Of a stretch of 61,962 nt of DNA, positions 26,476-51,750 are shown one piece after another (the stretch's first letter is position 1; the number at the start of each line of letters is the position of its first letter). This DNA is from Candidatus Bathyarchaeota archaeon (lineage in GTDB: Archaea; Thermoproteota; Bathyarchaeia; 40CM-2-53-6; RBG-13-38-9). The notes under the pieces are model-generated. The model worked only from the letters and a program-made list of their open reading frames with translations. It was not told where the DNA came from and searched no databases. The DNA is taken from contig JAOZGX010000114.1 of the NCBI GenBank assembly GCA_026015185.1, positions 1 through 61,962 on the forward strand. Direction: 5' to 3'. The translations under genes were made by a program, and so were the position numbers.

Positions 26476-26800
26476 GGCGGTGGTGACATCCCCAAGCAGT
26501 CGATGCACCTTCCAACAACGGTTTCCAATCTGCATCCTCAGCACTGAGATCCTGCTAGCGCCTAAACGTCCGTCTTACGGCTGCTCTCTTCCGAGCCTGG
26601 CCGGGTTCGACGGTAAGAGGAAAAACTCCTTCCTTCGAAGGAATCAACATCTCCGCCGGCCCAACAGGGCAGCGCCTCATTGTCAGCAGTAGGTCCTATT
26701 GTAGGTCGGATACATCTATCCGCCTAAGTTAACGGATCCCCGCGTATAGCCGGTTTCGGGTAACAGGGCACGGCTAGCACCCCGATCCCTCACCACCGCC
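26476..26800 (-). ncRNA. Signal recognition particle RNA (7S/SRP RNA)
   Basis: A G+C-rich island in AT-rich DNA. The 5' GGCGGTGGTGAGGGATCGGGG pairs with the 3' ...CCCCAAG...TCACCACCGCC region. The minus strand contains the helix-8 signature GGCCAGGCTCGGAAGAGAGCAGCC. Length about 325 nt. Confidence 0.8.
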
Positions 26801-30160: not shown

Positions 30161-30297
30161 TGGCGCCGCCGATAGGATTCGAACCTACGACCAACGGGTT
30201 AACAGCTTCAGCCTCAACTTCTAAGTTTGGAGTTGAGTCCGCTGCTCTACCACTGAGCTGTCGCCTGCCAAAATATATCGACGGGGCAAACGGCGGC
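30161..30297 (-). tRNA. tRNA-Asn(GTT) with two introns, CCA encoded
   Basis: Manual fold: GCCGCCG/CGGCGGC acceptor, GCTC-AGTGGTA-GAGC D-arm, GTAGG-TTCGAAT-CCTAT T-arm. A 30-nt insert follows position 8. A 32-nt insert at 30/31, when removed, gives GCGGG-CTGTTAA-CCCGT. Confidence 0.7.
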
Positions 30298-37409: not shown

Positions 37410-38912
37410 ATGTTAAAACAGCTCATTCACAGTGGTATCATCTTACCAAAATATGAATTCAAGGGATTCAAAATAAGGTTTCGAGGGGACATCCTAAAGC
37501 TCACTCATGAGCAGGAAGAGATGGCAGTTGCATGGGTAAAAAAGTTAGGTACACCATATGTTGAAGATAGCAAATTTGTAAAAAATTTCTTTAAAGACTT
37601 TTGTAACGCATTGGCCATTGAACCAACAATCAATCCATCGGATTTTGATTTTTCCGAGATAGTAAAATGGGTCGAAGATGAAAAAGCTGCCAAAGAGATG
37701 ATGACTAAGGAAGAAAAGAAAAAATTGGCAGAAGAGCGCAAGAAAAAAAGAGAGAAAAACAAAGAAAAATACGGATATGCTATTGTGAATGGGAAGAAAG
37801 TTGAGGTTGCAGCTTACCAAGCTGAGCCTGCTGGAATATTTATGGGTAGAGGTAAACACCCTCTTCGAGGAAGTTGGAAACCTCCAGTAAAATATGAAGA
37901 TATAACTCTTAATCTATCCCCAGATGCGCCAAAACCTAAAGGGAATTGGAAGGAGATAGTTTGGCAATCTGAATTGATGTGGATTGCTAGATGGGATGAT
38001 CCTCTTAGAGGTGAGAAGAAGTATGTTTGGCTGGCGGATACAGCACCTATAAAACAAGAACGTGAAAAGGATAAATTTGATCATGCAAAAAAGCTCGGGA
38101 CGAGGATAGGAAAATTAAGATCCCATATTCAGGAAAATTTAGTAAGTGAAGATCCTAGAAGGCGAAAACTTGCAACTGTGTCTTATCTTATTGATGCCCT
38201 TAAGATTAGGGTAGGCGATGAAAAGGGGGATGATGAAGCTGATACAGTTGGTGCTACAACTTTAAGGGCCAAACATGTGAAATTTTTAGATAATGGTTCA
38301 GTTTTATTTGATTTCTTAGGAAAAGATAGTATACGTTTTAAAAAATCTATTAATCCTCCTCCTGAAGTACTTAATAATCTAAAAGAATTTGTTAAATCAA
38401 ATAACCAATCGATCTTCAATGGAGTGCGGTCAGACACAGTAAGTGAATTTCTATCAGAAGTTGTAGAAGATGTTTCATCTAAAGGTTTCAGAACTTACCA
38501 TGCAACAGAAGCTGTTAAGAAATACCTGTCACATGTAAAGGCATCCCAAGATATGCTTGAGTGGGAAAAAAAGGAAATTATAAGATTGGCAAATCTTCAA
38601 GCCGCTATTCTACTTAACCATAAAAAAGCTATTCCAAAGAATTTCAATAAAACACTGGAAAAAAGAATTGCTCGTTTAGGAGAACTCAAAAAGAAAAAAA
38701 TAACGCCAAAACGTAAAGAAACAATTAGAAAATCACAAAAAAGAATAGAAATAATAAAGAAAACAAAAGAATTCAACCTTAATACCTCACTCAAGAGCTA
38801 CATAGATCCTCGAATAATCTATCGTTGGTCTAAAAAGGTCGGATATAATTGGAGAGATTATTATCCTAAAAGTCTTGAGAGAAAGTTTGAATGGATAGAG
38901 AACACATCTTAA
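37410..38912 (+). CDS. Eukaryote-like DNA topoisomerase IB
   Basis: ADTVGATTLRAKHV, FDFLGKDSIRF and FRTYHAT core motifs. C-terminal TSLKSYIDPRI corresponds to the eukaryotic SKxNYLDPRI active-site Tyr. Confidence 0.9.
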   Translation: MLKQLIHSGIILPKYEFKGFKIRFRGDILKLTHEQEEMAVAWVKKLGTPYVEDSKFVKNFFKDFCNALAIEPTINPSDFDFSEIVKWVEDEKAAKEMMTKEEKKKLAEERKKKREKNKEKYGYAIVNGKKVEVAAYQAEPAGIFMGRGKHPLRGSWKPPVKYEDITLNLSPDAPKPKGNWKEIVWQSELMWIARWDDPLRGEKKYVWLADTAPIKQEREKDKFDHAKKLGTRIGKLRSHIQENLVSEDPRRRKLATVSYLIDALKIRVGDEKGDDEADTVGATTLRAKHVKFLDNGSVLFDFLGKDSIRFKKSINPPPEVLNNLKEFVKSNNQSIFNGVRSDTVSEFLSEVVEDVSSKGFRTYHATEAVKKYLSHVKASQDMLEWEKKEIIRLANLQAAILLNHKKAIPKNFNKTLEKRIARLGELKKKKITPKRKETIRKSQKRIEIIKKTKEFNLNTSLKSYIDPRIIYRWSKKVGYNWRDYYPKSLERKFEWIENTS

Positions 38913-39036
38913 TTATTATCATTAGGAAAAATGCGCATTAAAGCAGATTAACCTGTACCCGCTAGTCATAGACTTTTCATAATTTACAAAAATACTTTCG
39001 ATCATCTGTGTGTAAGTCATCATCATACTCCATTCC

Positions 39037-39044
39037 TTATATAA
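39037..39044 (+). promoter_or_regulatory. Candidate TATA box for the crenactin operon
   Basis: TTATATAA lies about 30 nt upstream of the first candidate start codon (GTG 39075). AGGTG at 39073-39077 could instead serve a GTG at 39087. Confidence 0.35.
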
Positions 39045-39074
39045 CGTTTGATAAAACACATGAGATCTCATTAG

Positions 39075-39251
39075 GTGAATCGTAAGGTGCTTGAGGGTAA
39101 AGCAAGATTTACTATTCCTAGTAAAGGTAGTAATACTGGTGTTGTCTACATCCCAGCAGACATTGTAAAAGATTCAAATTTTCCCTTTCAATCAAACGAG
39201 AAAGTGAAAATTAGAATTCATGGCAAAAGACTCATAATCAAGAGGGATTAA
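39075..39251 (+). CDS. AbrB/SpoVT-like (swapped-hairpin) small DNA-binding protein, not in the ORF track
   Basis: Hand-translated: VNRKVLEGKARFTIPSKGSNTGVVYIPADIVKDSNFPFQSNEKVKIRIHGKRLIIKRD*. The pattern resembles AbrB/MazE-type domains. Its stop TAA (39249-39251) overlaps the next ATG (39251), forming TAATG. Confidence 0.5.
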   Translation: MNRKVLEGKARFTIPSKGSNTGVVYIPADIVKDSNFPFQSNEKVKIRIHGKRLIIKRD

Positions 39252-39808
39252 TGATGAAATCCTCTGGTAAAATTAAAACCTCTATTTCAGGACATATGTC
39301 CTTCACATTCAATTCTAGTGAAAAAATCTATGGAAAATTTGAAGATATTTTTAATTTAATAAAAGAGAAAACTAATTTGCGTTGGGAAAAATCTGGATTT
39401 TACACTTTTTCTGGTGGAGTTATTTCACATTTACATTGTAACAAAATGGAAAACGGAAATTCTAAAGCATCTCTTAGATTTCTAAAAGCAAAACCATATT
39501 TTCTAGATAATTTAACCTGCGCTATTCAACAAAGAGCTACTGATAATACCATATCGTGCAGTATAAAAGGAAATTTAGATTTTGAAAAAATAAAATCATA
39601 TTTACAAAACGAAAGCGATTGGTTTGCTGAATCCGATGTAAATTTTGTTGCCACTCAGAATTCAAACAAACATAAAGTTGAGATCACGGCATATCCAAAA
39701 ATATCTATTTTGAATCTAATGTTTGAATTTAAAGATAAAGTATGTAATTCGAATTTACCAAGTGAAATTATTAGAAATATCTGTAAAATTGGAGGAGGAA
39801 AAATATGA
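39251..39808 (+). CDS. Hypothetical protein, first accessory gene of the crenactin operon
   Basis: 185 aa, no motif recognised. ATGA overlap with the crenactin start at 39805-39808. Confidence 0.5.
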   Translation: MMKSSGKIKTSISGHMSFTFNSSEKIYGKFEDIFNLIKEKTNLRWEKSGFYTFSGGVISHLHCNKMENGNSKASLRFLKAKPYFLDNLTCAIQQRATDNTISCSIKGNLDFEKIKSYLQNESDWFAESDVNFVATQNSNKHKVEITAYPKISILNLMFEFKDKVCNSNLPSEIIRNICKIGGGKI

Positions 39809-41076
39809 ACCAAGATTACAAACAGAAATACACATTTGGAGCAGATTATGGAACTAGTTACTTCAAATATGGATCAATTATCTGTGGCGAAGAACCTAAG
39901 ATCGTAGAAAATAGAGGATATTTCTCAAACAATGAAAGTATTATGCATAAAGCATTTGGTGAAACAAAAGATATCATAGTTGGCGAAGAAGTTCCATTAT
40001 ATCTTCAGGGTAAGGATGATTTAACTACAAATCTAATTTATCCCATGAAAAATGGAATAATTGAGAAAAAGGATGAGAAAGCATGGAAAGTAGTTAATAC
40101 AATCAGCTTACATGCTCTATCTGCTTTTAAACCTGCTGATACCGAATTTCAAGGATTTTATACAGTCGCTTCGCTATCCTCAATTGCACCAAAGTATATG
40201 TATGAAAAACTTTTCCAAACTTATCAAGAAATAAATAACAAAGAGAGATTAATCAAAGCGATAACCATCATACCACAACCTCTGGCCGTTGCTATTGCAC
40301 ATAAAGTTACAACCTGCACAGTTATCGAAAGCGGGCATGGCAACACACAAGTATGCCCAATCTCTCACTATCCAATTAGAAGTGCAATAGTCGCAATAAA
40401 TAGGGGCGGAGGAGATGCCAACTCCATTACTGCAGAAATTTTAAAAGACATCGGTTATTCAGATTTGGCTAGAGAAGAAGCTTTTATCATTAAAGCAAAA
40501 GAGCAATTGGGCCTTATACCCATCGACTTAGATAAATCAATTACCTTAGCCAAAAAAAATCCAAGAAAATTTAAGGCCAAAATCAAAATACCTGGAACAA
40601 GAATAGAAATCGATTTAGAAAATAATGCATGGACAAGATTCCTTATTGGAGAATATGTTTTTAATCCTAACGATGAGATTTTCGAAAGCTATTTTAGAAG
40701 AGGTTTGCCAAAACCTAAAGACGTAAGAATAGGCGATCTTACTTTTCGAGGAATGTTAGATTTCGGAGAAGCTATTGTAGAGTCCGTTGAAAGATGCCCG
40801 GTTGAATTGCAGCCACACTTGTATAGACAAATCCTGCTTTCAGGGGGTAATTTCTGTTGGAGAAACTCACAAGAGGAAATGCCCGGAATTGTTGTTGATG
40901 CTCCTAGAAAGATAAAGCTATTACTTAGAAAAAAAGGCATAACAAATGTCAAAGTAAACATGACCAACTCCCCTCAATTCTCTGTTTGGCGGGGCTGTAC
41001 GATATATGGATACGCTGTTCCTGAAAATTATTCTTGGAATTGGGACCAATTAGAAGGTTGGCTTTCTGTTGGTTAA
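39805..41076 (+). CDS. Crenactin-type archaeal actin
   Basis: Actin-fold motifs with actin spacing: phosphate-1 GADYGTSYFKYG, phosphate-2 VIESGHGNTQVCP, adenosine LLSGGNFCWRN, C-terminal PQFSVWRGCTIYGYA (compare actin YSVWIGGSILA). PQPLAVAIA and NRGGGDANSIT..ILKDIGYSDLAREE match crenactin as I remember it. Confidence 0.85.
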   Translation: MNQDYKQKYTFGADYGTSYFKYGSIICGEEPKIVENRGYFSNNESIMHKAFGETKDIIVGEEVPLYLQGKDDLTTNLIYPMKNGIIEKKDEKAWKVVNTISLHALSAFKPADTEFQGFYTVASLSSIAPKYMYEKLFQTYQEINNKERLIKAITIIPQPLAVAIAHKVTTCTVIESGHGNTQVCPISHYPIRSAIVAINRGGGDANSITAEILKDIGYSDLAREEAFIIKAKEQLGLIPIDLDKSITLAKKNPRKFKAKIKIPGTRIEIDLENNAWTRFLIGEYVFNPNDEIFESYFRRGLPKPKDVRIGDLTFRGMLDFGEAIVESVERCPVELQPHLYRQILLSGGNFCWRNSQEEMPGIVVDAPRKIKLLLRKKGITNVKVNMTNSPQFSVWRGCTIYGYAVPENYSWNWDQLEGWLSVG

Positions 41077-41707
41077 TCCGATTACAACACAATTCATAGA
41101 ATATTTTCAATCTAAAGGAATGAAACTAGTAGAGAAAACGAAATCAGAGAATGAAGAAGACAAAAATACACCGGATTTGATTATGTCTGATAATACAAAC
41201 AGAATATACTTGAAAATAATTCAAAGGGAATCATTAAACGAGCGGAATGAATTATTAAGTTCAATTATGAAATCTGTCAGTTATTTATTTGAAGCAAACA
41301 TAGTATATTTAGCATTGCCAAAATTATATGCTTCAATTCTTGACGGAAAGGTTTTTCGTGAAAATGGTCTAGGATTATTAATTTATGATGACAAAGGGGC
41401 TTTAGAGGAAGTTATCCGACCAAAAATATTTCCAAATAAGCAAATGAGCACGTCGAGTTCTAGTACCATTCCAATCAAGCTGATGGATGAGATTAATTCT
41501 CTCAAAGATAGCTTACATTCTCTTGAAATTGAGGTCAACATGTTAAAAGATCTGGTGAATAATCTTAAGAACAATCAAAAAAGCATTGAGATAGAGCCAC
41601 AAATTAAAAAGGTCAAAGTAGAACAAAAAGTAAACTCAACTGATTTCCCAGAATTTATGAGAGACAATCCATGGGTCGAAATTCTATCAAGAAGAGGAAG
41701 GGGGTAA
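41069..41707 (+). CDS. Coiled-coil protein with conserved-looking C-terminal tail (arcadin-2 position)
   Basis: TTG start overlaps the crenactin end by 8 nt. N-terminal globular part, central heptad region (INSLKDSLHSLEIEVNMLKDLVNNLKNN), tail DFPEFMRDNPWVEILSRRGRG. Confidence 0.5.
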   Translation: MVNPITTQFIEYFQSKGMKLVEKTKSENEEDKNTPDLIMSDNTNRIYLKIIQRESLNERNELLSSIMKSVSYLFEANIVYLALPKLYASILDGKVFRENGLGLLIYDDKGALEEVIRPKIFPNKQMSTSSSSTIPIKLMDEINSLKDSLHSLEIEVNMLKDLVNNLKNNQKSIEIEPQIKKVKVEQKVNSTDFPEFMRDNPWVEILSRRGRG

Positions 41708-41998
41708 GTGAATATCTTGTCTATTAATGTAGAGAATGTGAATCGCGTTTCAATAAGACCTTTAAAAATAGTTTTAGATTTATCCGATCCATTTGGACTT
41801 GAATTACCACTTGAGGATTTTATTAAAATTCGTAAAAAGATACCTGAACCACCTGAGTATAAAATCGTTGGAGTAGAGGTTGTAACTTGTTCTGAGGATA
41901 GTCAACCGGTACTAGTTACTGAGTGTGGACAATGTGCAAGATTTATTCGAAGATTTAATGGACAAATCTTCTGTAAGAAATTCTTACCTATAGAATGA
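41708..41998 (+). CDS. Small Cys-containing protein, last gene of the crenactin operon
   Basis: GTG start lies directly after the preceding stop. 96 aa. C...C..C...C spacing in the C-terminal half. Confidence 0.45.
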   Translation: MNILSINVENVNRVSIRPLKIVLDLSDPFGLELPLEDFIKIRKKIPEPPEYKIVGVEVVTCSEDSQPVLVTECGQCARFIRRFNGQIFCKKFLPIE

Positions 41999-42081
41999 AT
42001 GATTAGGCAATCTTTTTTTCTTTAATTCGTTAGAAACAATAAATAATCAAAACTAGAACAGATTATAATTTGGGAAAATGA

Positions 42082-43092
42082 ATGAAAGAAGCTTTGTTTT
42101 ATAAACATAATGACAATAAATCTGTCACTTGTTTTTTATGCCCTCATAGATGTACGATCCCAGAATCTAAAAGAGGAATATGTAAGGTTCGTGAAAATAG
42201 AGATGGAAAGCTTTACTCTTTAGTCTATGGGAAACTTATCTCTGAAGCTATTGATCCAATTGAAAAAAAACCTCTTTACCATTTCTACCCCGCCTCTCTC
42301 TCATACTCAATAGCAACAGTTGGCTGTAATTTAAGATGTTTTAATTGTCAGAATTACGAAATCTCACAAATGCCAAAAAATAAGGATTTAATTTATGGAG
42401 AACAGACAAAACCGGAAGATGTTATTTCGTCTGCAAAAAAGTATGATTGTTTAAGTATATCTTATACATATACTGAACCAACAATTTTCTTCGAATATGC
42501 ATTTGACACTTCCATAATTGCTCATGAGAAAAATATCAAAAATGTTTTTGTAACTAATGGATACATTACCGAAGAAGCATTAGTTAAAATAAGCCCATTT
42601 TTGGATGGTGTTAATATAGATCTAAAATCGATGTCAGATAAGTTTTACAGAGAAATTTGTGGAGCCGAACTACAACATGTTCTTGATTCAATAAAACTGT
42701 ATAAACGATTAGGTATATGGATTGAAATAACGACATTAATCATTCCCTCTAAGAATGATTCAGAAAAAGAACTTAATGAAATTGCGGACTTCATAAGTGA
42801 TATAGGAAAGGAAATACCTTGGCATGTATCGCAATTTTATCCTACATATAAAATGAATGATCTGCCAAGAACGCCCACCACGACTCTGAAAAAAGCTAGA
42901 ACTATTGGATATGATGCAGGTCTAAAATATGTTTACACTGGAAATATTCCAGGTGATGAGGGCGAAAGTACGTATTGTTATAATTGTGGAGAAATTTTAA
43001 TCAAACGATATGGCTTTCAATTAGCAACTATTAAAATAAAAAATGGAAAATGTTTTCGATGCAATACAAAAATTGATGGTGTTGGGCTATGA
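42082..43092 (+). CDS. AmmeMemoRadiSam-system radical SAM enzyme
   Basis: N-terminal CxxCxxxC cluster, CNLRCFNCQNYEIS radical-SAM motif, C-terminal CYNCG...CFRC. Confidence 0.8.
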   Translation: MKEALFYKHNDNKSVTCFLCPHRCTIPESKRGICKVRENRDGKLYSLVYGKLISEAIDPIEKKPLYHFYPASLSYSIATVGCNLRCFNCQNYEISQMPKNKDLIYGEQTKPEDVISSAKKYDCLSISYTYTEPTIFFEYAFDTSIIAHEKNIKNVFVTNGYITEEALVKISPFLDGVNIDLKSMSDKFYREICGAELQHVLDSIKLYKRLGIWIEITTLIIPSKNDSEKELNEIADFISDIGKEIPWHVSQFYPTYKMNDLPRTPTTTLKKARTIGYDAGLKYVYTGNIPGDEGESTYCYNCGEILIKRYGFQLATIKIKNGKCFRCNTKIDGVGL

Positions 43093-46042: not shown

Positions 46043-46906
46043 CTATTTTTCTCTACGATTATCAATTTCTTTCTTTATAGCCTCTTTCATCACGTCTATT
46101 GGAGGTTCTCTACCAGTCCAGATTTTGAATGCCATGGCCCCTTGATAAACTAGCATATCAATCCCATCTATCGCCTTTGCACCTATTCTTTTAGCGTTTT
46201 GTATTAACTTTGTTCCATTTGGGCTATACACTATATCAAAAATACAAATTTTAGAAGTTAGCCATTCAGATTTAATTAGATTTTCTGATTTGGGATTCAT
46301 ACCAATACTGGTGGCGTTTATCAAAATATCAGCGTCAATAAGGTTTTGACGAACAGCTTCTTGGGATAAGTGATCCCAAGTTATTTCAATATCAAACATT
46401 AATTTTAGATTATCAGTTAACTTCTTAGCTCTCTCTTCAGTCCTATTTAGTATCATAATTTTTTTAACAAATTTGGATAAAGTGAATGCGATAGATTTAG
46501 CAGAGCCGCCCGCACCAAGCAATAAGATCTTTTTCTCTTTCAGCTCAACTTTATTATCTTTTAATGCCTTAATAGCTCCGATTCCATCTGTATTATAACC
46601 AACTAATTGACTATCTCTATTTACAATTGTATTTACGGAACCTATTTTTTTTGCCTCTGGATCAATCTCGTCTAAGTAATTAATCACATCCTCTTTGTGC
46701 GGTATTGTCACATTCAGGCCATGTATTCCTAGAGAGCGAATACCTGAAATAGATTCATGAAGATGTTCGCTTTCAACTTCAAATGCAATATAAATGAGAT
46801 CTAGACCTAATTCTCTAAATGCAGCATTATGCATAGCTGGACTTAATGTATGATCTATTGGGTGTCCAATTATACCGCAGACTTTGGTATTCCCTGATAT
46901 ATTCAT
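46043..46906 (-). CDS. aroE: Shikimate dehydrogenase
   Basis: GHPIDHTLSP.MHNAAF, NVTIPHK, NTDG and GAGGSAKS motifs. Confidence 0.9.
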   Translation of the reverse strand: MNISGNTKVCGIIGHPIDHTLSPAMHNAAFRELGLDLIYIAFEVESEHLHESISGIRSLGIHGLNVTIPHKEDVINYLDEIDPEAKKIGSVNTIVNRDSQLVGYNTDGIGAIKALKDNKVELKEKKILLLGAGGSAKSIAFTLSKFVKKIMILNRTEERAKKLTDNLKLMFDIEITWDHLSQEAVRQNLIDADILINATSIGMNPKSENLIKSEWLTSKICIFDIVYSPNGTKLIQNAKRIGAKAIDGIDMLVYQGAMAFKIWTGREPPIDVMKEAIKKEIDNRREK

Positions 46907-47584
46907 TCAAGTATTAAATCCTAATTTGTTGTATAATTCCTTCAATTCCCCAATTTCAATTTGACCAGGGCCTGTTTCCTGGCCTTTTTCTAATGAGGCC
47001 ATTGTGAAGAATCCACCAAAGATTGGAGAAAAGATTCTAGATATTTTACCAAATTCACCCATAGCAAAACATACAATTTTTGATTTTTCAAAGTTTTCAT
47101 TAAGAAAACTCAATAATCTTAAATTATCATTGTAATCGTTAGCTGTAGTAACTATCTTGCAAACATCCATATCTATTTTTAACATCTCCTCATAAATCCT
47201 TCGAATTTCATTATTTGAAGGAGTTTTATTGAAATCATGATGCGAAATAATAACATCTGATCCGAGTGAATGTAGATCTTTAGTTATTTTGGCAACATCT
47301 TTTGTGGAAAGCTCAATATCAACATATTTAAAACCGCTTCTAGCTGCATCTAAAAGAATCTTAACTCTAGCATCTTCATCTTCTTTGAAAGAACCACCTT
47401 CGTCTGCTGACCTGTTTGTTGCTATGAGCGGTATTTTAGTTGATTTTACGATATTTTTCATATTATTGAAATCATTAAAATAATCCAATCTTATTTCAAT
47501 TAAATCAGGATTATTCTTCTCAACAGATCTGATTTTCCTAATAGCGTTTTCGATATTATCAGCTAAGATACAAACACATATCAA
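46907..47584 (-). CDS. aroD: 3-dehydroquinate dehydratase, type I
   Basis: EIRLD.. and ...SHHDF... motifs, about 225 aa, contiguous with aroE. Confidence 0.8.
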   Translation of the reverse strand: MICVCILADNIENAIRKIRSVEKNNPDLIEIRLDYFNDFNNMKNIVKSTKIPLIATNRSADEGGSFKEDEDARVKILLDAARSGFKYVDIELSTKDVAKITKDLHSLGSDVIISHHDFNKTPSNNEIRRIYEEMLKIDMDVCKIVTTANDYNDNLRLLSFLNENFEKSKIVCFAMGEFGKISRIFSPIFGGFFTMASLEKGQETGPGQIEIGELKELYNKLGFNT

Positions 47585-47589
47585 AACCT

Positions 47590-48663
47590 TCAGCGCTCAA
47601 TCACCGTTTCTTCCTCGACCCTTGTTCCAAAATGCCTTCCTCCCTCTTCGATCCTCACTTTAACTTTATCCCCTTTCTTCAAATCTGTAACTGATTTTGA
47701 ACCATCATCTGTAACCACCCTAATAGTTTCTGCGTTTTGGACTATCGTCTTAATCATCTTGTTATCTTTTTTAGCCTCTATAAGCAGTAAAGGCCTCAAC
47801 TCGATCTTAACTCTTCCAATATTGCTTAATCTTACATTTCCATCTCTGGCAACTATTGCTACTTCATCGCCCGCTTTCAATTCCGATAAATACTTTGTTT
47901 TATTATCGGAAGATAAAATATACAATGATACTGGGCCAGCATTTACTCTAAAAGGTCTTGTCTCAACATAAGGGCTTTCATGAGTTTCAGACTCTATTAA
48001 GAAAAGGGCCGAGGATTGGCTACCGACAAGCATGCCTTCACCCTTTTTCATTAAATCACAGCTATCTATGCAAACTCTAGCTCCCATGCTTATTGTCTTT
48101 GTATCAACTATTTCTGCATCAGTTAACTCTAGTTCAGTAGAACTTTCCTTGATTATGGAATAAGTTTTGGAGAGATCCTCTGTACTAGGGGCGACTAGCA
48201 TTATCCCATCGGCACCAAGTTCTAATGTCTTAAGTGCAACATTCGCTTCTTCTGGACTAGAGACTTCTGCAATTAAAACACACTTACCGTGTACTTGGGC
48301 TATGATATTCTCTAAAGGTATTATTTTCCAATCTTTACAGCTGATTAAAATATAATCTGCTAATAAATCAACAGCTTTAATGACTAATTCTTCATCTTTT
48401 CGATCTTTGATTTCTATCCTAACAGCTATTTTTCTTCCTGATTTCTTGAAATCGGCAAATAGATCCTCATCTAATTCATCTAATAAGGCTATTTCACTCG
48501 ATTCAAACTTTGAGCATGTTTTTATTTTGTTTTTATGCAATTTTGCAAGTAATTCTTCATCATCTGCTAGAACTATATCACAATATTGAGAAGATGCTTG
48601 AATTAACTCATCTAGATTCTTTGAAGGCAATTCTCTTTGAATATTCAGCCAAAACTTTTTCAC
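47590..48663 (-). CDS. 3-dehydroquinate synthase II (archaeal type)
   Basis: About 357 aa with no NAD/Zn DHQS-I motifs. Its position between ADH synthase and aroD, and its overall pattern, are typical of archaeal DHQ synthase II. Confidence 0.75.
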   Translation of the reverse strand: MKKFWLNIQRELPSKNLDELIQASSQYCDIVLADDEELLAKLHKNKIKTCSKFESSEIALLDELDEDLFADFKKSGRKIAVRIEIKDRKDEELVIKAVDLLADYILISCKDWKIIPLENIIAQVHGKCVLIAEVSSPEEANVALKTLELGADGIMLVAPSTEDLSKTYSIIKESSTELELTDAEIVDTKTISMGARVCIDSCDLMKKGEGMLVGSQSSALFLIESETHESPYVETRPFRVNAGPVSLYILSSDNKTKYLSELKAGDEVAIVARDGNVRLSNIGRVKIELRPLLLIEAKKDNKMIKTIVQNAETIRVVTDDGSKSVTDLKKGDKVKVRIEEGGRHFGTRVEEETVIER

Positions 48664-49461
48664 TTATTCTCCTTCCAAAATACTCATGGCATCCTCAACT
48701 GAAGCTTTATCATGAACTATGGCTGAAAGTGCTTTAGACATCGATGTAGGATTCTCATGCTGAAATACATTCCTACCTACAGAAAGTCCAGATCCTCCTG
48801 CTTTTATTGAATCAAAAACCATCTGTAAAACCTCTTTATCTGTTTTGGCTTTTGGACCGCCTGCAATTACAACAGGGACTGGGCAACATGAAGTTATCTC
48901 TCTAAAAGTTTCAATGCTTCCAGTATAATTAGTCTTAACTACATCTGCTCCTAACTCAGCACCCAATCTTGCTACATGGTTTATGAATTCTGGATCGTGT
49001 TCATTTTTTATATTCGGTCCCCTAGGATACATCATTGCAAGCAACGGCAATCCAAAATGGTCACACTCATCAGCTATCATGCCCATATCCATAAGCATCT
49101 GACTTTCTTCTTCGCAACCGATATTAACATGTATAGAAACGGCATCTGCTCCAAGTTTAATCGCTTCTTCAACTGAACAAACTTGGACCTTCAAATTAGG
49201 TTTCTGGCTTAATTTCGTAGATCCGCTAAGGTGTATTATTAGACCTAAATCTTTTGCGTCAACCGTTTTAGCTATACCTTTATGGATGATGATGGCATCG
49301 GCACCACCTTCAGCAAGCTTATCCAGGATATCTTGCATATTTGTTAGCCCTTTAACAGGCCCGGTTGAAACTCCATGATCCATTGGAACTATGACAGTCC
49401 TATCGTCTTTCCTAAAGATTCTTCTTAATCTTCTTTCCTTTCCCCAATTCAAAAAAAACAC
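48664..49461 (-). CDS. 2-amino-3,7-dideoxy-D-threo-hept-6-ulosonate (ADH) synthase, class I aldolase family
   Basis: VPMDHG and VVKTNYTG (Schiff-base Lys) aldolase pattern, 265 aa, contiguous with DHQ synthase II. Confidence 0.75.
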   Translation of the reverse strand: MFFLNWGKERRLRRIFRKDDRTVIVPMDHGVSTGPVKGLTNMQDILDKLAEGGADAIIIHKGIAKTVDAKDLGLIIHLSGSTKLSQKPNLKVQVCSVEEAIKLGADAVSIHVNIGCEEESQMLMDMGMIADECDHFGLPLLAMMYPRGPNIKNEHDPEFINHVARLGAELGADVVKTNYTGSIETFREITSCCPVPVVIAGGPKAKTDKEVLQMVFDSIKAGGSGLSVGRNVFQHENPTSMSKALSAIVHDKASVEDAMSILEGE

Positions 49462-49462
49462 C

Positions 49463-50500
49463 TTAAAAATACTTCTTAGCTTTCAAATATTCTGCATTTA
49501 GAATTGAGCATCCAGCCGCTCCTCTAATTGTATTATGGCCTAATACCAAATATTTAATTCCATCTAAAGCCGTATCTCTTCTCAATCTGCCAACTACAAC
49601 GGACATTCCGCCTCCAGCCATTCGATCAAGTCTTGGCTGAGGTCTATTGCTTTCCTTTCTAAGAACAATTGGTTTGTTTGGAGCCGTAGGGAGCCTTAAT
49701 TTTTGAGGTTCTCCAGAAAAATTGTTCATTACATCGGTTATGTTTTCTATAGTTGCTTCTTTTTCCGTCTCGAGAAAAACCGCTTCTAAATGGCCATCTA
49801 TAGTTGGAACTCTATGGCAACTTGCAGAAACTTTAAAACTGGCCATGCTCGATGAAGAGCCTAAAATCTTTAAAGTCTCTTGCTGAACTTTTTCTTCTTC
49901 TTTATTTATGAATGGAAGAACGTTATCGATCATATCTAAGGATGATTCCCCTGGATAACCGGCTCCTGAGAGTGCTTGCATGGTAGACACAATAACTCGT
50001 TTTATTCCAAATTCATCAGATATCGGTTTCAATGAGAGAGTGAAAATTGCAGCAGTACAATTAGGATTTGTAATTATCGCACCATCCCATTTTCTTCTTC
50101 TTCTTTGGATATCCAAGAGACTAATATGTTCACCATTTACTTCAGGATTAAGAATTGGGACATCTGGATCCATTCTATGGGAGGAAGCATTACTAAAAAC
50201 TAAAGATCCAGATTTCGCAAAAGACTCTTCTACCTTACCCGCCTCCTCAGAAGGTAGAGCAGAAAAAATAATATCGGCATCATCTAATGCTTTGGGATCA
50301 GTTGGTTTCACTTTGAGTTCGCCAATACTTTCTGGTATAGAATCTAAGAATTTCCATCGAATAGCATCTTGGTATTGTAGTCCTTTGCTCCTATTCGATG
50401 CTGCAACGGCGGATATTTCAAACCAAGGATGATCTAAAAGCAAATGAACGAATCTTTGACCGACTGCTCCTGTTGCACCAAGTATTGCTGCTTTTATCAT
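49463..50500 (-). CDS. asd: Aspartate-semialdehyde dehydrogenase
   Basis: GATGAVGQRF, NPNCTA (active-site Cys), RVPTIDGH. Confidence 0.9.
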   Translation of the reverse strand: MIKAAILGATGAVGQRFVHLLLDHPWFEISAVAASNRSKGLQYQDAIRWKFLDSIPESIGELKVKPTDPKALDDADIIFSALPSEEAGKVEESFAKSGSLVFSNASSHRMDPDVPILNPEVNGEHISLLDIQRRRRKWDGAIITNPNCTAAIFTLSLKPISDEFGIKRVIVSTMQALSGAGYPGESSLDMIDNVLPFINKEEEKVQQETLKILGSSSSMASFKVSASCHRVPTIDGHLEAVFLETEKEATIENITDVMNNFSGEPQKLRLPTAPNKPIVLRKESNRPQPRLDRMAGGGMSVVVGRLRRDTALDGIKYLVLGHNTIRGAAGCSILNAEYLKAKKYF

Positions 50501-51750
50501 GTATTCTCACCTATCGCTTTTTTGATTAATTCTTTAGATTTTTTTGCACTCTTCCAATCGACGAAAACCAATATGCTGGATGTTATAGTTAATATCCCAA
50601 AGATATTGATATCATTAACCATTAAACTTTCTGAAATTCTTCCAATTATGCCAGGAGTCTCTTCAAGACCAGAGCCTTTAATTTTAATAAAACCAAGTTT
50701 TTTACGAATCGTCATAGAGATTAAGTCTTTAGATCTTTTCACCCCATCATGAATGGCTTTTAGTGTAGATTCCAAATTTTGGTTCTCGATCACATATATA
50801 ATGATGGAATTAAAATTTAGTGATAACCCGGCTAAATCTTGATTTCTTTTGATCTTTTTGATCAGCCCATATATTAAATCAGGTTTCTCTGAAATTCTAT
50901 TTCCAATAATTGTAACAGAAGCTATGGAGGAATTATCAAGTTCCACACTCAAATTTGATGTAATCCCTCCTGTTATAATGGTACCATTTGTAGAAAGATC
51001 ACCGTTCATGTGGCTAATTACCTTAACATTTGATTCTGGAGCTTTATATTTTAGTGCTTTTCTATGTATGAATTTTTTTCCAGAATCAGCTAATGAAAGT
51101 AACGAATCTATGCTGATCTCGGGAATCCTTTCAGCATCGGGTATTAATTTTGGATCAGCCGTCATTATTCCATTAGAATCAGTAACCATAATAACTTCAT
51201 TTGATTTCAAAGCTTTAGCTAAAATAAAAGCTGTAGTATCACTACCGCCTCTTCCTATAGTACTTATTTTACCACTTTGAGTCTTTCCGATGAATCCTGC
51301 AATTACTGGAACTATGTTCTTGGATAGAAGCGGTTCAACAAAATCTTTTACTTTCTTTTCACACTCATCCAGTATTGGATTCGCATTTGAATAGTTGTCA
51401 TCAGTTATTATTGGCCATGCTTTATCAGAAGGATCAAAATATTTTGATTTTAATCCTTCTGCTTTTAGAAATGCGGCAAAGATTCTCGCACTAATCCTTT
51501 CTCCCATAGATAGGATGTCATCTTCATCTTCTCTCTCTATCGATTTATTAGTACTATGAAGTATACTTAGCAATTCATCCGTAGTTTTTCCCATAGCGGA
51601 AACAACCACTATGACCTTTTCACCACTTTTTACTGCTTTGACTATAGATGATGCTGCTCTCGTAATTCTCTCAGGATCAGCGATACTTGTACCTCCAAAT
51701 TTAACAATAACTCTTTTACTTGTATCTGCACTGTGACCTGAATCTGGCAA
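50497..51750 (-). CDS. Aspartate kinase
   Basis: VVKFGGTS, GRGGSDTTA and C-terminal ACT repeats. 4-nt overlap with asd. Confidence 0.9.
   Translation of the reverse strand: MPDSGHSADTSKRVIVKFGGTSIADPERITRAASSIVKAVKSGEKVIVVVSAMGKTTDELLSILHSTNKSIEREDEDDILSMGERISARIFAAFLKAEGLKSKYFDPSDKAWPIITDDNYSNANPILDECEKKVKDFVEPLLSKNIVPVIAGFIGKTQSGKISTIGRGGSDTTAFILAKALKSNEVIMVTDSNGIMTADPKLIPDAERIPEISIDSLLSLADSGKKFIHRKALKYKAPESNVKVISHMNGDLSTNGTIITGGITSNLSVELDNSSIASVTIIGNRISEKPDLIYGLIKKIKRNQDLAGLSLNFNSIIIYVIENQNLESTLKAIHDGVKRSKDLISMTIRKKLGFIKIKGSGLEETPGIIGRISESLMVNDINIFGILTITSSILVFVDWKSAKKSKELIKKAIGENT

Follow-up and report, generated by a model that had tools for sequence, protein, structure and literature searches.

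Few prokaryotic proteins are as closely related to eukaryotic actin as crenactin is, and, to our knowledge, arcadin-2 is the only crenactin regulator understood so far, studied in one thermophile. The cellular role of crenactin is unsettled, with shape, division, and segregation having been proposed (PMC7613921). Here, we analyzed a crenactin locus in a 61,962-nucleotide (nt) stretch of DNA from a Candidatus Bathyarchaeota archaeon (contig JAOZGX010000114.1), hereafter called the window. Five open reading frames (ORFs) follow one another on its plus strand from 39075 to 41998, abutting or overlapping, and neither the ORF list nor the sequence leaves an intergenic gap. The third and fourth encode proteins of 423 and 212 amino acids (aa), assigned below to crenactin and arcadin-2; the three others are called p58, p185, and p96 after the length of their products (Table 1).

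Table 1. Genes and other features of the crenactin operon in the window. Names follow the assignments made in the text.
Feature	Coordinates	Strand	Remarks
Conserved 17-nt motif TACTTTCGATCATCTGT	38993..39009	+	TATA box 27 nt downstream; may serve as an operator or activator site
TATA-box-like TTATATAA	39037..39044	+	first start codon 31 nt downstream
p58	39075..39251	+	58 aa, GTG start
p185	39251..39808	+	185 aa
Crenactin	39805..41076	+	423 aa
Arcadin-2	41069..41707	+	212 aa, TTG start
Arcadin-2 C-terminal tail DFPEFMRDNPWVEILSRRGRG	41642..41704	+	residues 192-212, Trp202; predicted plug for the crenactin hydrophobic groove
p96	41708..41998	+	96 aa, GTG start
T-rich run TTTTTTTCTTT	42013..42023	+	15 nt past the last stop; archaeal oligo-T terminator-like

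The first two junctions consist of the overlapping stop and start codons TAATG (39249-39253) and ATGA (39805-39808), the start of the fourth gene overlaps the stop of the third by 8 nt (41069-41076), and the last junction is a TAA followed directly by GTG at 41708. A first-pass annotation of this DNA had described the set as free of intergenic space with these same four junctions, and its coordinates were reproduced exactly. Shine-Dalgarno–like purine-rich strings lie inside the preceding genes (GGAGGAGG before 39805 and GGAAGGGGG before 41708). Because other genomes have homologues of all five ORFs beside crenactin and in unchanged order, the operon goes beyond what chance packing would produce, and the five-gene set is a real operon. 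At the beginning of p58, the window reads TAG-GTG (39072-39077), where close relatives have ATG-GTG. Since TAG replaces the ATG codon of the relatives, translation of p58 must start at GTG 39075 or GTG 39087. A scan for bacterial-type hairpin terminators and promoters returned nothing relevant, which is uninformative for an archaeon.

The crenactin–arcadin-2 pair

The 423-aa product matched the NCBIfam crenactin model (NF053560) at E 1.5e-163 with 544.6 bits, its residues 5-419 aligning with positions 1-421 of the 422 in the model, whereas MamK, the runner-up family in NCBIfam, reached 35.7 bits (E 4.7e-9). Among PDB sequences, the Pyrobaculum crenactin entries 4cj7, 5ly3, and 5mw1 matched residues 3-419 at E 3.4e-109, compared with only E 3e-11 for the best eukaryotic actin. 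The actin-fold motifs pointed out in the first-pass annotation were supported by a match to Pfam Actin (E 3.7e-15) and by the full-length crenactin alignment, which includes PQFSVWRG. Residues Q158 and V333/E334 align with Q164 and V339/E340 of the Pyrobaculum protein, and Q158 and E334 were invariant among 24 relatives. In Pyrobaculum, Q164 is catalytic and the V339/E340 pair is critical for polymerization (PMC5173319). The closest relatives were proteins of Bathyarchaeia with 98-60% identity, many of them named "crenactin" by JGI; crenactin in the Miscellaneous Crenarchaeotal Group (MCG)/Bathyarchaeota has been on record since 2015 (PMC4571567). We assign the 423-aa protein by homology as a crenactin orthologue, as first proposed, and predict that it forms actin-like filaments in an ATP-dependent manner.

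The 212-aa product had been listed among the partners that carry no placeable motif, but it proved to resemble arcadin-2 over nearly its whole length. The NCBIfam model Rkd2 (NF053561) matched it at E 4.5e-7, with residues 36-210 aligned to positions 27-196 of 196. When the family of the 212-aa protein was compared by hhalign with eight arcadin-2 proteins of Thermoproteales, the probability was 99.8% (E 1.4e-30, 207 columns), and the hidden Markov model (HMM) of the family matched 8/8 of these proteins with E values from 1.5e-9 to 7.6e-31. We take these matches to identify the 212-aa protein as a diverged but genuine arcadin-2 orthologue. Its predicted N-terminal domain is joined by a coiled-coil or linker region to a helix at the C terminus that would bind crenactin; no DNA-binding domain was recognizable in family scans.

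The tail of this protein, once described as distinct, carries instead the motif of arcadin-2. The window protein ends with …DNPWVEILSRRG (…DNPW202VEILSRRG), and the pattern [ND]xW[VLIM]xx[LFIM] was present in 81 of 86 arcadin-2 homologues; of the remaining five, four are cut short where the contig ends, and one reads DHPWVEVL. For comparison, the tails of Thermoproteales proteins read …VDNEWVRILRSKT in Pyrobaculum, …NNPWVDVLRKKG and LPDFLSNNPWVDVLRKKG in Vulcanisaeta, and LPSFARDNPWLDFLSRRRG in Thermofilum. On this alignment, the window tail is identified as a canonical groove-binding C terminus of arcadin-2. The idea that the gene after the actin keeps the logic of arcadin-2, including the C-terminal tail peptide, was therefore borne out both by homology and by the conserved motif.

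A C-terminal tryptophan helix that is conserved and joined to the core by a variable linker is a feature of arcadin-2 (PMC5173319). In Pyrobaculum, the last 17 residues bind the hydrophobic groove of crenactin and depolymerize its filaments (Izoré et al. 2016, PMC5173319). A tryptophan of this peptide makes key contacts, and in the bound state the peptide collides with the D-loop of the adjoining subunit; the dissociation constant of crenactin and full-length arcadin-2 is 31 nM, and the peptide interaction itself is called nanomolar (PMC5173319). We would transfer this mechanism by analogy, and with good confidence, to the window protein.

Next, we compared the neighborhoods of crenactin genes. 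A scan with a single crenactin sequence found nothing, but an alignment query succeeded and, with one genome per GTDB species, yielded 80 loci (81 with the window) from Bathyarchaeia, Brockarchaeota, Culexmicrobium, Methanomethylicota, Nitrososphaeria/"Thaumarchaeota" metagenome-assembled genomes (MAGs), Geocrenenecus, Pelearchaeum, and Wolframiiraptor. Iterative HMMs of the families were then run on all six-frame ORFs of these loci. Arcadin-2 lay directly 3' of crenactin in 78/81 loci and likewise in 8/8 loci of Thermoproteales. The exceptions were two loci at which the contig breaks off and two from Pelearchaeum (L071:2850-3500 and L073:5308-5955), where arcadin-2 is found ~1.3 kb upstream of crenactin and not directly downstream, the sole departure from adjacent placement.

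Confident matches of the p58, p185, p96, and 212-aa protein HMMs occurred solely beside crenactin and on its strand; the sole off-position matches were two weak minus-strand ones of the 212-aa protein, ~4.9 kb downstream (L009 and L012). The accessory genes were co-conserved with crenactin, as p58 was found upstream of it in 35/81 loci, p185 directly upstream of it in 37/81, and p96 3' of arcadin-2 in 53/81. They occurred in several architectures: p58-crenactin-arcadin-2-p96 in 18 complete loci, p185-crenactin-arcadin-2 in 15, crenactin-arcadin-2-p96 in 13, and p185-crenactin-arcadin-2-p96 in 5, while the arrangement of the window, p58-p185-crenactin-arcadin-2-p96, was seen in 10 complete and 2 truncated loci. 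Crenactin and arcadin-2 form the invariant core, around which p58, p185, and p96 combine modularly. The module had been suggested to be lineage-specific; instead, p58, p185, and p96 recur in Bathyarchaeia, Culexarchaeia/Methanomethylicia, Brockarchaeota, and Nitrososphaeria/Aigarchaeota-type MAGs. Within the same nine genomes, mean pairwise identity was 0.69 for crenactin, 0.57 for p58, 0.50 for p96, 0.34 for arcadin-2, and 0.27 for p185. Bathyarchaeia-type crenactin contigs also turned up in MAGs labeled Acidoferrum/Acidiferrales (L026 and L036; Acidobacteriota) and Thermoplasmata (L074), with proteins P0439, P0450, and P0452; these mislabeled contigs likely reflect binning contamination.

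Accessory families, promoter motif, and surroundings

No Pfam or NCBIfam family matched p185, in line with the earlier finding that it carries no placeable motif. A word-index search for homologues retrieved only 4 close relatives, and the exhaustive search that was needed found no more than 18 of 1.84 billion representatives at E<=1e-3. A weak match of the p185 profile to P0252, an 864-aa repeat protein, was judged spurious. The AlphaFold2 model of p185, built from a 21-sequence alignment, had a predicted local distance difference test score (pLDDT) of 89.4 and a predicted template modeling score of 0.84. Its secondary structure runs E-H-E-E-E-E-H (E, strand; H, helix), twice over, which is the topology of the TATA-binding protein (TBP) domain. 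The top Foldseek matches in the PDB were TBP chains (9k3b_U, 8iue_U, and 4b0a; probability 0.99), along with AdoMetDC and DUF54; Pfam TBP did not match. We predict that p185 folds into two tandem TBP-like (beta-alpha-beta4-alpha) domains, a resemblance rather than membership in the family.

The C-terminal additions of p185 homologues vary by lineage. In four loci (L004, at 298-1068, L005, L006, and L013; proteins P0239, P0243, and P0246), p185 carries a 52-aa extension, the profile of which matched the ribbon-helix-helix (RHH) protein ORF56 of pRN1 (2k9i, E 4.8e-5) and a CopG-family protein; Pfam RHH_1 matched at E 6.8e-4. By these matches, the extension is an RHH domain. All 4/4 RHH-fusion loci are devoid of p58, whereas the window subclade has p58 just upstream of p185. 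The link of p185 to a DNA-binding module is drawn mainly because p58 and the RHH fusion are distributed in this complementary manner. Homologues from Brockarchaeota and Nitrososphaeria-type MAGs have short, strongly basic C-terminal tails, such as RKRVFEEFKRILRFKGK and KSSILSRIMGWGR (L019, L029, L034, L058-L065, L069, L072, L075, and L077-L080). These tails have some amphipathic character and recall membrane-targeting or actin-groove-binding helices; compared with shuffles, their hydrophobic moments were mostly not significant.

The first gene had been called AbrB-like, which stood only as a weak resemblance: Pfam MazE_antitoxin (PF04014) matched p58 at E 0.015, but the score of 15.7 bits is below the curated cut-off of 24.7 bits. 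Among the members of the p58 family, 8/32 matched MazE_antitoxin at E<0.1, the best at E 0.0018, and hhalign gave a probability of 38% against an AbrB/SpoVT/MazE mini-alignment, which consisted of four sequences, one of them from L082. The family shares the pattern GxxYIPAxxVKDSxFPF…VxVRIxGxxLVIE. In public records, it is annotated as "hypothetical protein" and once as "MazE antitoxin" (JGI: "antitoxin component of MazEF"). p58 is probably a protein with a swapped-hairpin domain of the SpoVT/AbrB type.

p96 is the last of the three. As initially reported, it has no placeable motif, and neither Pfam, NCBIfam, nor PDB sequences gave a match. The AlphaFold2 model (pLDDT 86.4) is a small alpha/beta protein, and Foldseek found no fold match for it in the PDB (best E 0.49). 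A cysteine cluster formed by C61, C73, C76, and C89 is partly conserved, with C73 alone invariant, and every named family member is a "hypothetical protein."

We then looked for the arcadins that accompany crenactin in Thermoproteales, where the order in eight loci is arcadin-1, crenactin, arcadin-2, arcadin-3, and the SMC-like arcadin-4. HMMs of arcadin-1, -3, and -4 built from these eight arcade loci (4-8 sequences each) had no match anywhere in the 62-kb window, nor at distances of up to 6 kb from crenactin in L001-L080, and Pfam Arcadin_1 (PF18653) did not match any of the five window proteins or any member of the p58, p185, and p96 families. The accessory proteins had been suggested for comparison with the arcadins, and hhalign against arcadin-1 and arcadin-3 was negative for all three, with a best probability of 10%. 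This value belongs to p58 and arcadin-1, so that p58 as arcadin-1 remains a lead and not a result. p185 was rejected as arcadin-1, having neither a PDB sequence match nor an hhalign signal, and with 5LY5 absent from its Foldseek matches. For p96, the PDB sequence search, hhalign (0.3% against arcadin-3), and Foldseek ruled out both arcadin-3 and arcadin-1.

The C-terminal ~25 residues of arcadin-1 (…DVDVGDVVLISVESGEIKLRP; L081:7630-7971 and L082:7654-7989) carry a weak AbrB/MazE-like motif, with an hhalign probability of 63% over 22 columns and Pfam MazE at E 0.055. A distant kinship of arcadin-1 and p58, both encoded upstream of crenactin, is possible from this similarity. In Vulcanisaeta (L083:7662-7994) and a related MAG (L085:4677-4958), an unannotated gene of 93-110 aa lies just upstream of crenactin, and arcadin-1 is located 0.8-2.4 kb away on the opposite strand; this upstream gene is unrelated to p58, p185, and p96. 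In Pyrobaculum, Thermoproteus, and a related MAG, the arcade cluster is followed after a few kilobases by a TrmB-family regulator and a radical-SAM protein (Zn_ribbon_HMPTM; L081:13282-15021, L082:14313-16028, and L085:11200-11305).

The promoter region contains two elements. A box before the operon had been reported, and it is indeed present and kept in position in relatives (L001, L014, L009, and others), but the string TTATATAA by itself is not significant, with 5 occurrences in the window against 4.9 expected by chance. As only 31 nt separate the box from the GTG, the leader would be short or absent. The second element, a motif also written TACTTTCG…CT, lies inside the promoter stretch 38960-39075. 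Alignments upstream of the first operon gene gave its family consensus, TA[GC]TTT[CT]AC[TC]NNNCTC, and the spacing between motif and TATA box is 25-27 nt across relatives. With a position weight matrix built from 27 sites and a threshold of >=13 bits, the window contains a single match in 62 kb on both strands.

In held-out loci, the motif was found at the expected place in 7/7 with p58 and in 12/43 without p58; the latter include Nitrososphaeria-type loci with p185 as the first gene. At a background of 1.5e-5 per nucleotide and strand, this corresponds to a binomial P of ~1e-20, for loci that are not phylogenetically independent. The motif was not found before the clusters of Thermoproteales or in the four RHH-fusion loci, and the 230-nt promoter region contained no iterons and only one copy of the motif. 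Overall, it occurs upstream of the first operon gene in Bathyarchaeia and Nitrososphaeria-type MAGs (L001-L075).

The surroundings of the operon have a GC content of 35% across the window and include housekeeping chromosomal genes (EF-1alpha, EPSP synthase, chorismate synthase, ABCE1, TatC, topoisomerase IB, and signal recognition particle (SRP) RNA). The crenactin operon is chromosomal and belongs to an uncultured Bathyarchaeia-type archaeon; the closest relatives are Bathyarchaeia MAGs, which agrees with the host having been placed in the TACK group (Thaumarchaeota, Aigarchaeota, Crenarchaeota, and Korarchaeota). The first-pass annotation took the archaeon to be probably non-thermophilic; its IVYWREL fraction of 0.414 corresponds to a growth temperature of ~53 C in the Zeldovich formula, the reliability of which is poor at 35% GC. 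Just upstream of the operon lies a eukaryote-type topoisomerase IB (37410-38912, +) with three Pfam domains (E down to 8e-59), in agreement with a Bathyarchaeia/Nitrososphaerota-type host, and a radical-SAM gene (42082-43092) follows directly after it. Both were rejected as parts of the module, because their synteny extends no further than the two closest relatives. Since flanking synteny is limited in this way, p58 and p96 mark the module boundaries. Elsewhere in the window, Rfam identified an archaeal SRP RNA (26478-26798, −) and a 105-nt tRNA (30164-30268, −) that was missed by ARAGORN and probably contains an intron. The segment 43120-51750 carries genes of aromatic amino-acid biosynthesis (with Pfam matches confirming EPSP synthase and chorismate synthase), beside which a six-gene minus-strand cluster (46043-51750) is tightly packed with junctions of 0-5 nt.

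Interpretation of the operon

We consider it likely that the five genes constitute a Bathyarchaeia-type crenactin cytoskeleton operon, a variant of the arcade cluster in which three unnamed conserved families replace arcadin-1, -3, and -4. Crenactin would polymerize into ATP-dependent actin-like filaments. The C-terminal helix of arcadin-2, with Trp202, would insert into the hydrophobic groove of crenactin in competition with the D-loop of the next subunit; by analogy with Pyrobaculum, this would sequester monomers and depolymerize filaments, and translational coupling may set the ratio of actin to regulator. p58, as an AbrB-like dimeric DNA-binding protein, and the TBP-like p185 could make up the DNA-binding arm of the module, which most likely would autoregulate the operon through the conserved motif that precedes the TATA box by 27 nt. 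p185 may couple this regulation to the cytoskeleton, and p96 could be a small partner that binds filaments or arcadin-2.

Several observations weigh against parts of this interpretation. The scores of both core proteins are below the NCBIfam cut-offs, as the 544.6 bits of crenactin compare with an equivalog cut-off of 630 bits, and the 212-aa protein reached 29.8 bits against a cut-off of 290 bits, at which annotation pipelines would leave it unnamed. The AbrB assignment of p58 is under every curated threshold, the p58 profile found no AbrB or MazE protein among PDB sequences, and a PHROGs scan of p58 gave no match. Superposition of p185 with TBP yielded TM scores of 0.37-0.43 and a root-mean-square deviation of ~10 Å, a topological likeness only, and no sequence-level repeat was found between the two halves of p185. 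Because 12 loci that lack p58 have the motif and the four RHH-fusion loci do not, p58 need not bind it. The arcadin HMMs, with 4-8 sequences each, are small and could miss very divergent homologues, and genes for arcadin-1, -3, and -4 could be located elsewhere in the genome. Furthermore, all roles given to p58, p185, and p96 are deduced from the order of the genes, the logic of the fusion, and likeness of fold.

The same elements can be arranged differently. If the operon worked like ParMRC, it would be an actin-based DNA-partition machine instead of a cytoskeleton that serves shape or division and is equipped with a repressor of its own: p58 together with p185 (or p185-RHH) would form a ParR-type adaptor tying a chromosomal site to crenactin filaments, and arcadin-2 would recycle monomers. 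We judge this improbable. In its favor, ParR, which docks into the hydrophobic groove of ParM, belongs to the RHH proteins (PMC5173319), and some p185 homologues carry a fused RHH domain, mutually exclusive across loci with p58; however, neither p58 nor the p185 of the window has a C-terminal groove-binding helix comparable to that of ParR or arcadin-2. A conserved DNA motif adjoins the operon as parC adjoins parM, but parC consists of repeat arrays, whereas the motif is present in one copy and without iterons, and it keeps a fixed spacing of 25-27 nt from the TATA box, as transcription-factor sites typically do. Also in favor of partition, p58 changes almost as slowly as crenactin (identity 0.57 versus 0.69); against it, the motif persists without p58 and is missing where p185 carries the RHH domain.

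Very unlikely, in our view, is an arrangement in which the additional genes have nothing to do with actin, p58 and p185 being a toxin-antitoxin or regulatory cassette and p96 a hitchhiker, all merely co-transcribed. The weak MazE/AbrB likeness of p58, the one JGI record as "antitoxin component of MazEF," and the gain and loss of accessory genes between lineages would fit such a cassette. Against it, 22 loci have p58 but no p185 and 24 have p185 but no p58, so that the two are not an obligate pair, and the fold of p185 is not toxin-like. Moreover, in the 80 loci, p58, p185, and p96 always lie on the crenactin strand and abut crenactin or arcadin-2 in flanks that are otherwise unrelated, and p58 and p96 are strongly conserved (0.57 and 0.50), unlike typical mobile toxin-antitoxin cassettes. 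We give practically no credence to an actin of the plasmid- or virus-borne ParM, MreB, or FtsA type residing on a mobile element. The weak MamK matches (E 4.7e-9), expected of any actin-fold protein, are its sole support; the scores of 544.6 bits for crenactin and 35.7 for MamK, the PDB matches to crenactin (E 3e-109) and to actins (3e-11), and a window full of housekeeping chromosomal genes refute it.

The cytoskeleton operon that we favor can be extended to a broader proposal, which we regard as doubtful: outside Thermoproteales, TACK crenactin might work with unrecognized partners that link filaments to DNA and, in some lineages, also to the membrane, giving chromosomal actin-based DNA positioning or segregation with a dedicated cis-element shared between classes. 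These partners would be a TBP-fold protein with add-ons that vary by lineage (RHH or basic tails), an AbrB-like protein in the window subclade, and a small protein of novel fold. If true, this would mean actin-based DNA positioning or segregation in relatives of the eukaryotic ancestor.

Nothing in the operon overturns expectations. Its core of crenactin and arcadin-2 is a known system, the pair with its predicted groove-binding tail being universal across TACK lineages, while the complement of p58, p185, and p96 is new; arcadin-1, -3, and -4 were not found beside crenactin outside Thermoproteales. The three unannotated families, one of them RHH-fused in some genomes, and the promoter element are candidates for regulation or anchoring of archaeal actin and, together with the RHH fusion, offer testable leads on actin regulation.

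Comparison with known systems

The arcade cluster of Thermoproteales, consisting of crenactin and arcadin-1 to -4, was reportedly described by Ettema et al. in 2011. As in that cluster, crenactin of the window is followed by arcadin-2 on the same strand, the tryptophan helix of arcadin-2 is kept, and small genes occupy the slots of arcadin-1 upstream of crenactin and of arcadin-3 downstream of arcadin-2. In contrast, arcadin-1 (PF18653), the helical arcadin-3 (48-77 aa), and the SMC/Rad50-like arcadin-4 (~800 aa) were not detected here. The small genes in the arcadin slots are unrelated in sequence, the p185 and p96 models match no arcadin-1 PDB entry, and the window adds the 185-aa TBP-like protein and the conserved upstream DNA motif.

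Crenactin and arcadin-2 are known from TACK lineages outside Thermoproteales, namely, Aigarchaeota/Caldarchaeales and Culexarchaeia (bioRxiv 10.1101/2022.04.06.487207), and our Culexmicrobium, Wolframiiraptor, Geocrenenecus, and Pelearchaeum loci likewise carry the pair. The arCOG surveys of that study list arcadin-1 and, in marine Culexarchaeia, also arcadin-4, whereas we found neither within 6 kb of crenactin in the loci of those lineages. p185 and p96, of which the study makes no mention, flank crenactin in Culexarchaeia/Aigarchaeota-type loci.

With ParMRC, the operon shares an actin-fold filament gene that adjoins a small DNA-binding protein of beta-ribbon type (RHH on some p185 homologues and the AbrB-like p58 here), a groove-binding partner that acts through a C-terminal helix (arcadin-2 here and ParR there), and a conserved DNA site beside the operon. 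It differs from ParMRC in that its actin, crenactin, is much more like eukaryotic actin, that it resides on the chromosome, and that it lacks iteron arrays. Furthermore, family scans recognize no DNA-binding domain in the groove binder arcadin-2, which depolymerizes filaments, while ParR caps and stabilizes them.

Last, arcadin-2 can be compared with thymosin beta-4 and WH2 domains, eukaryotic sequesterers of G-actin that likewise occupy the hydrophobic groove. There is no sequence kinship, and the helix of arcadin-2, placed at the C terminus, is oriented opposite to thymosin; in both, however, a short amphipathic helix in the cleft between subdomains 1 and 3 blocks longitudinal contacts (PMC5173319).

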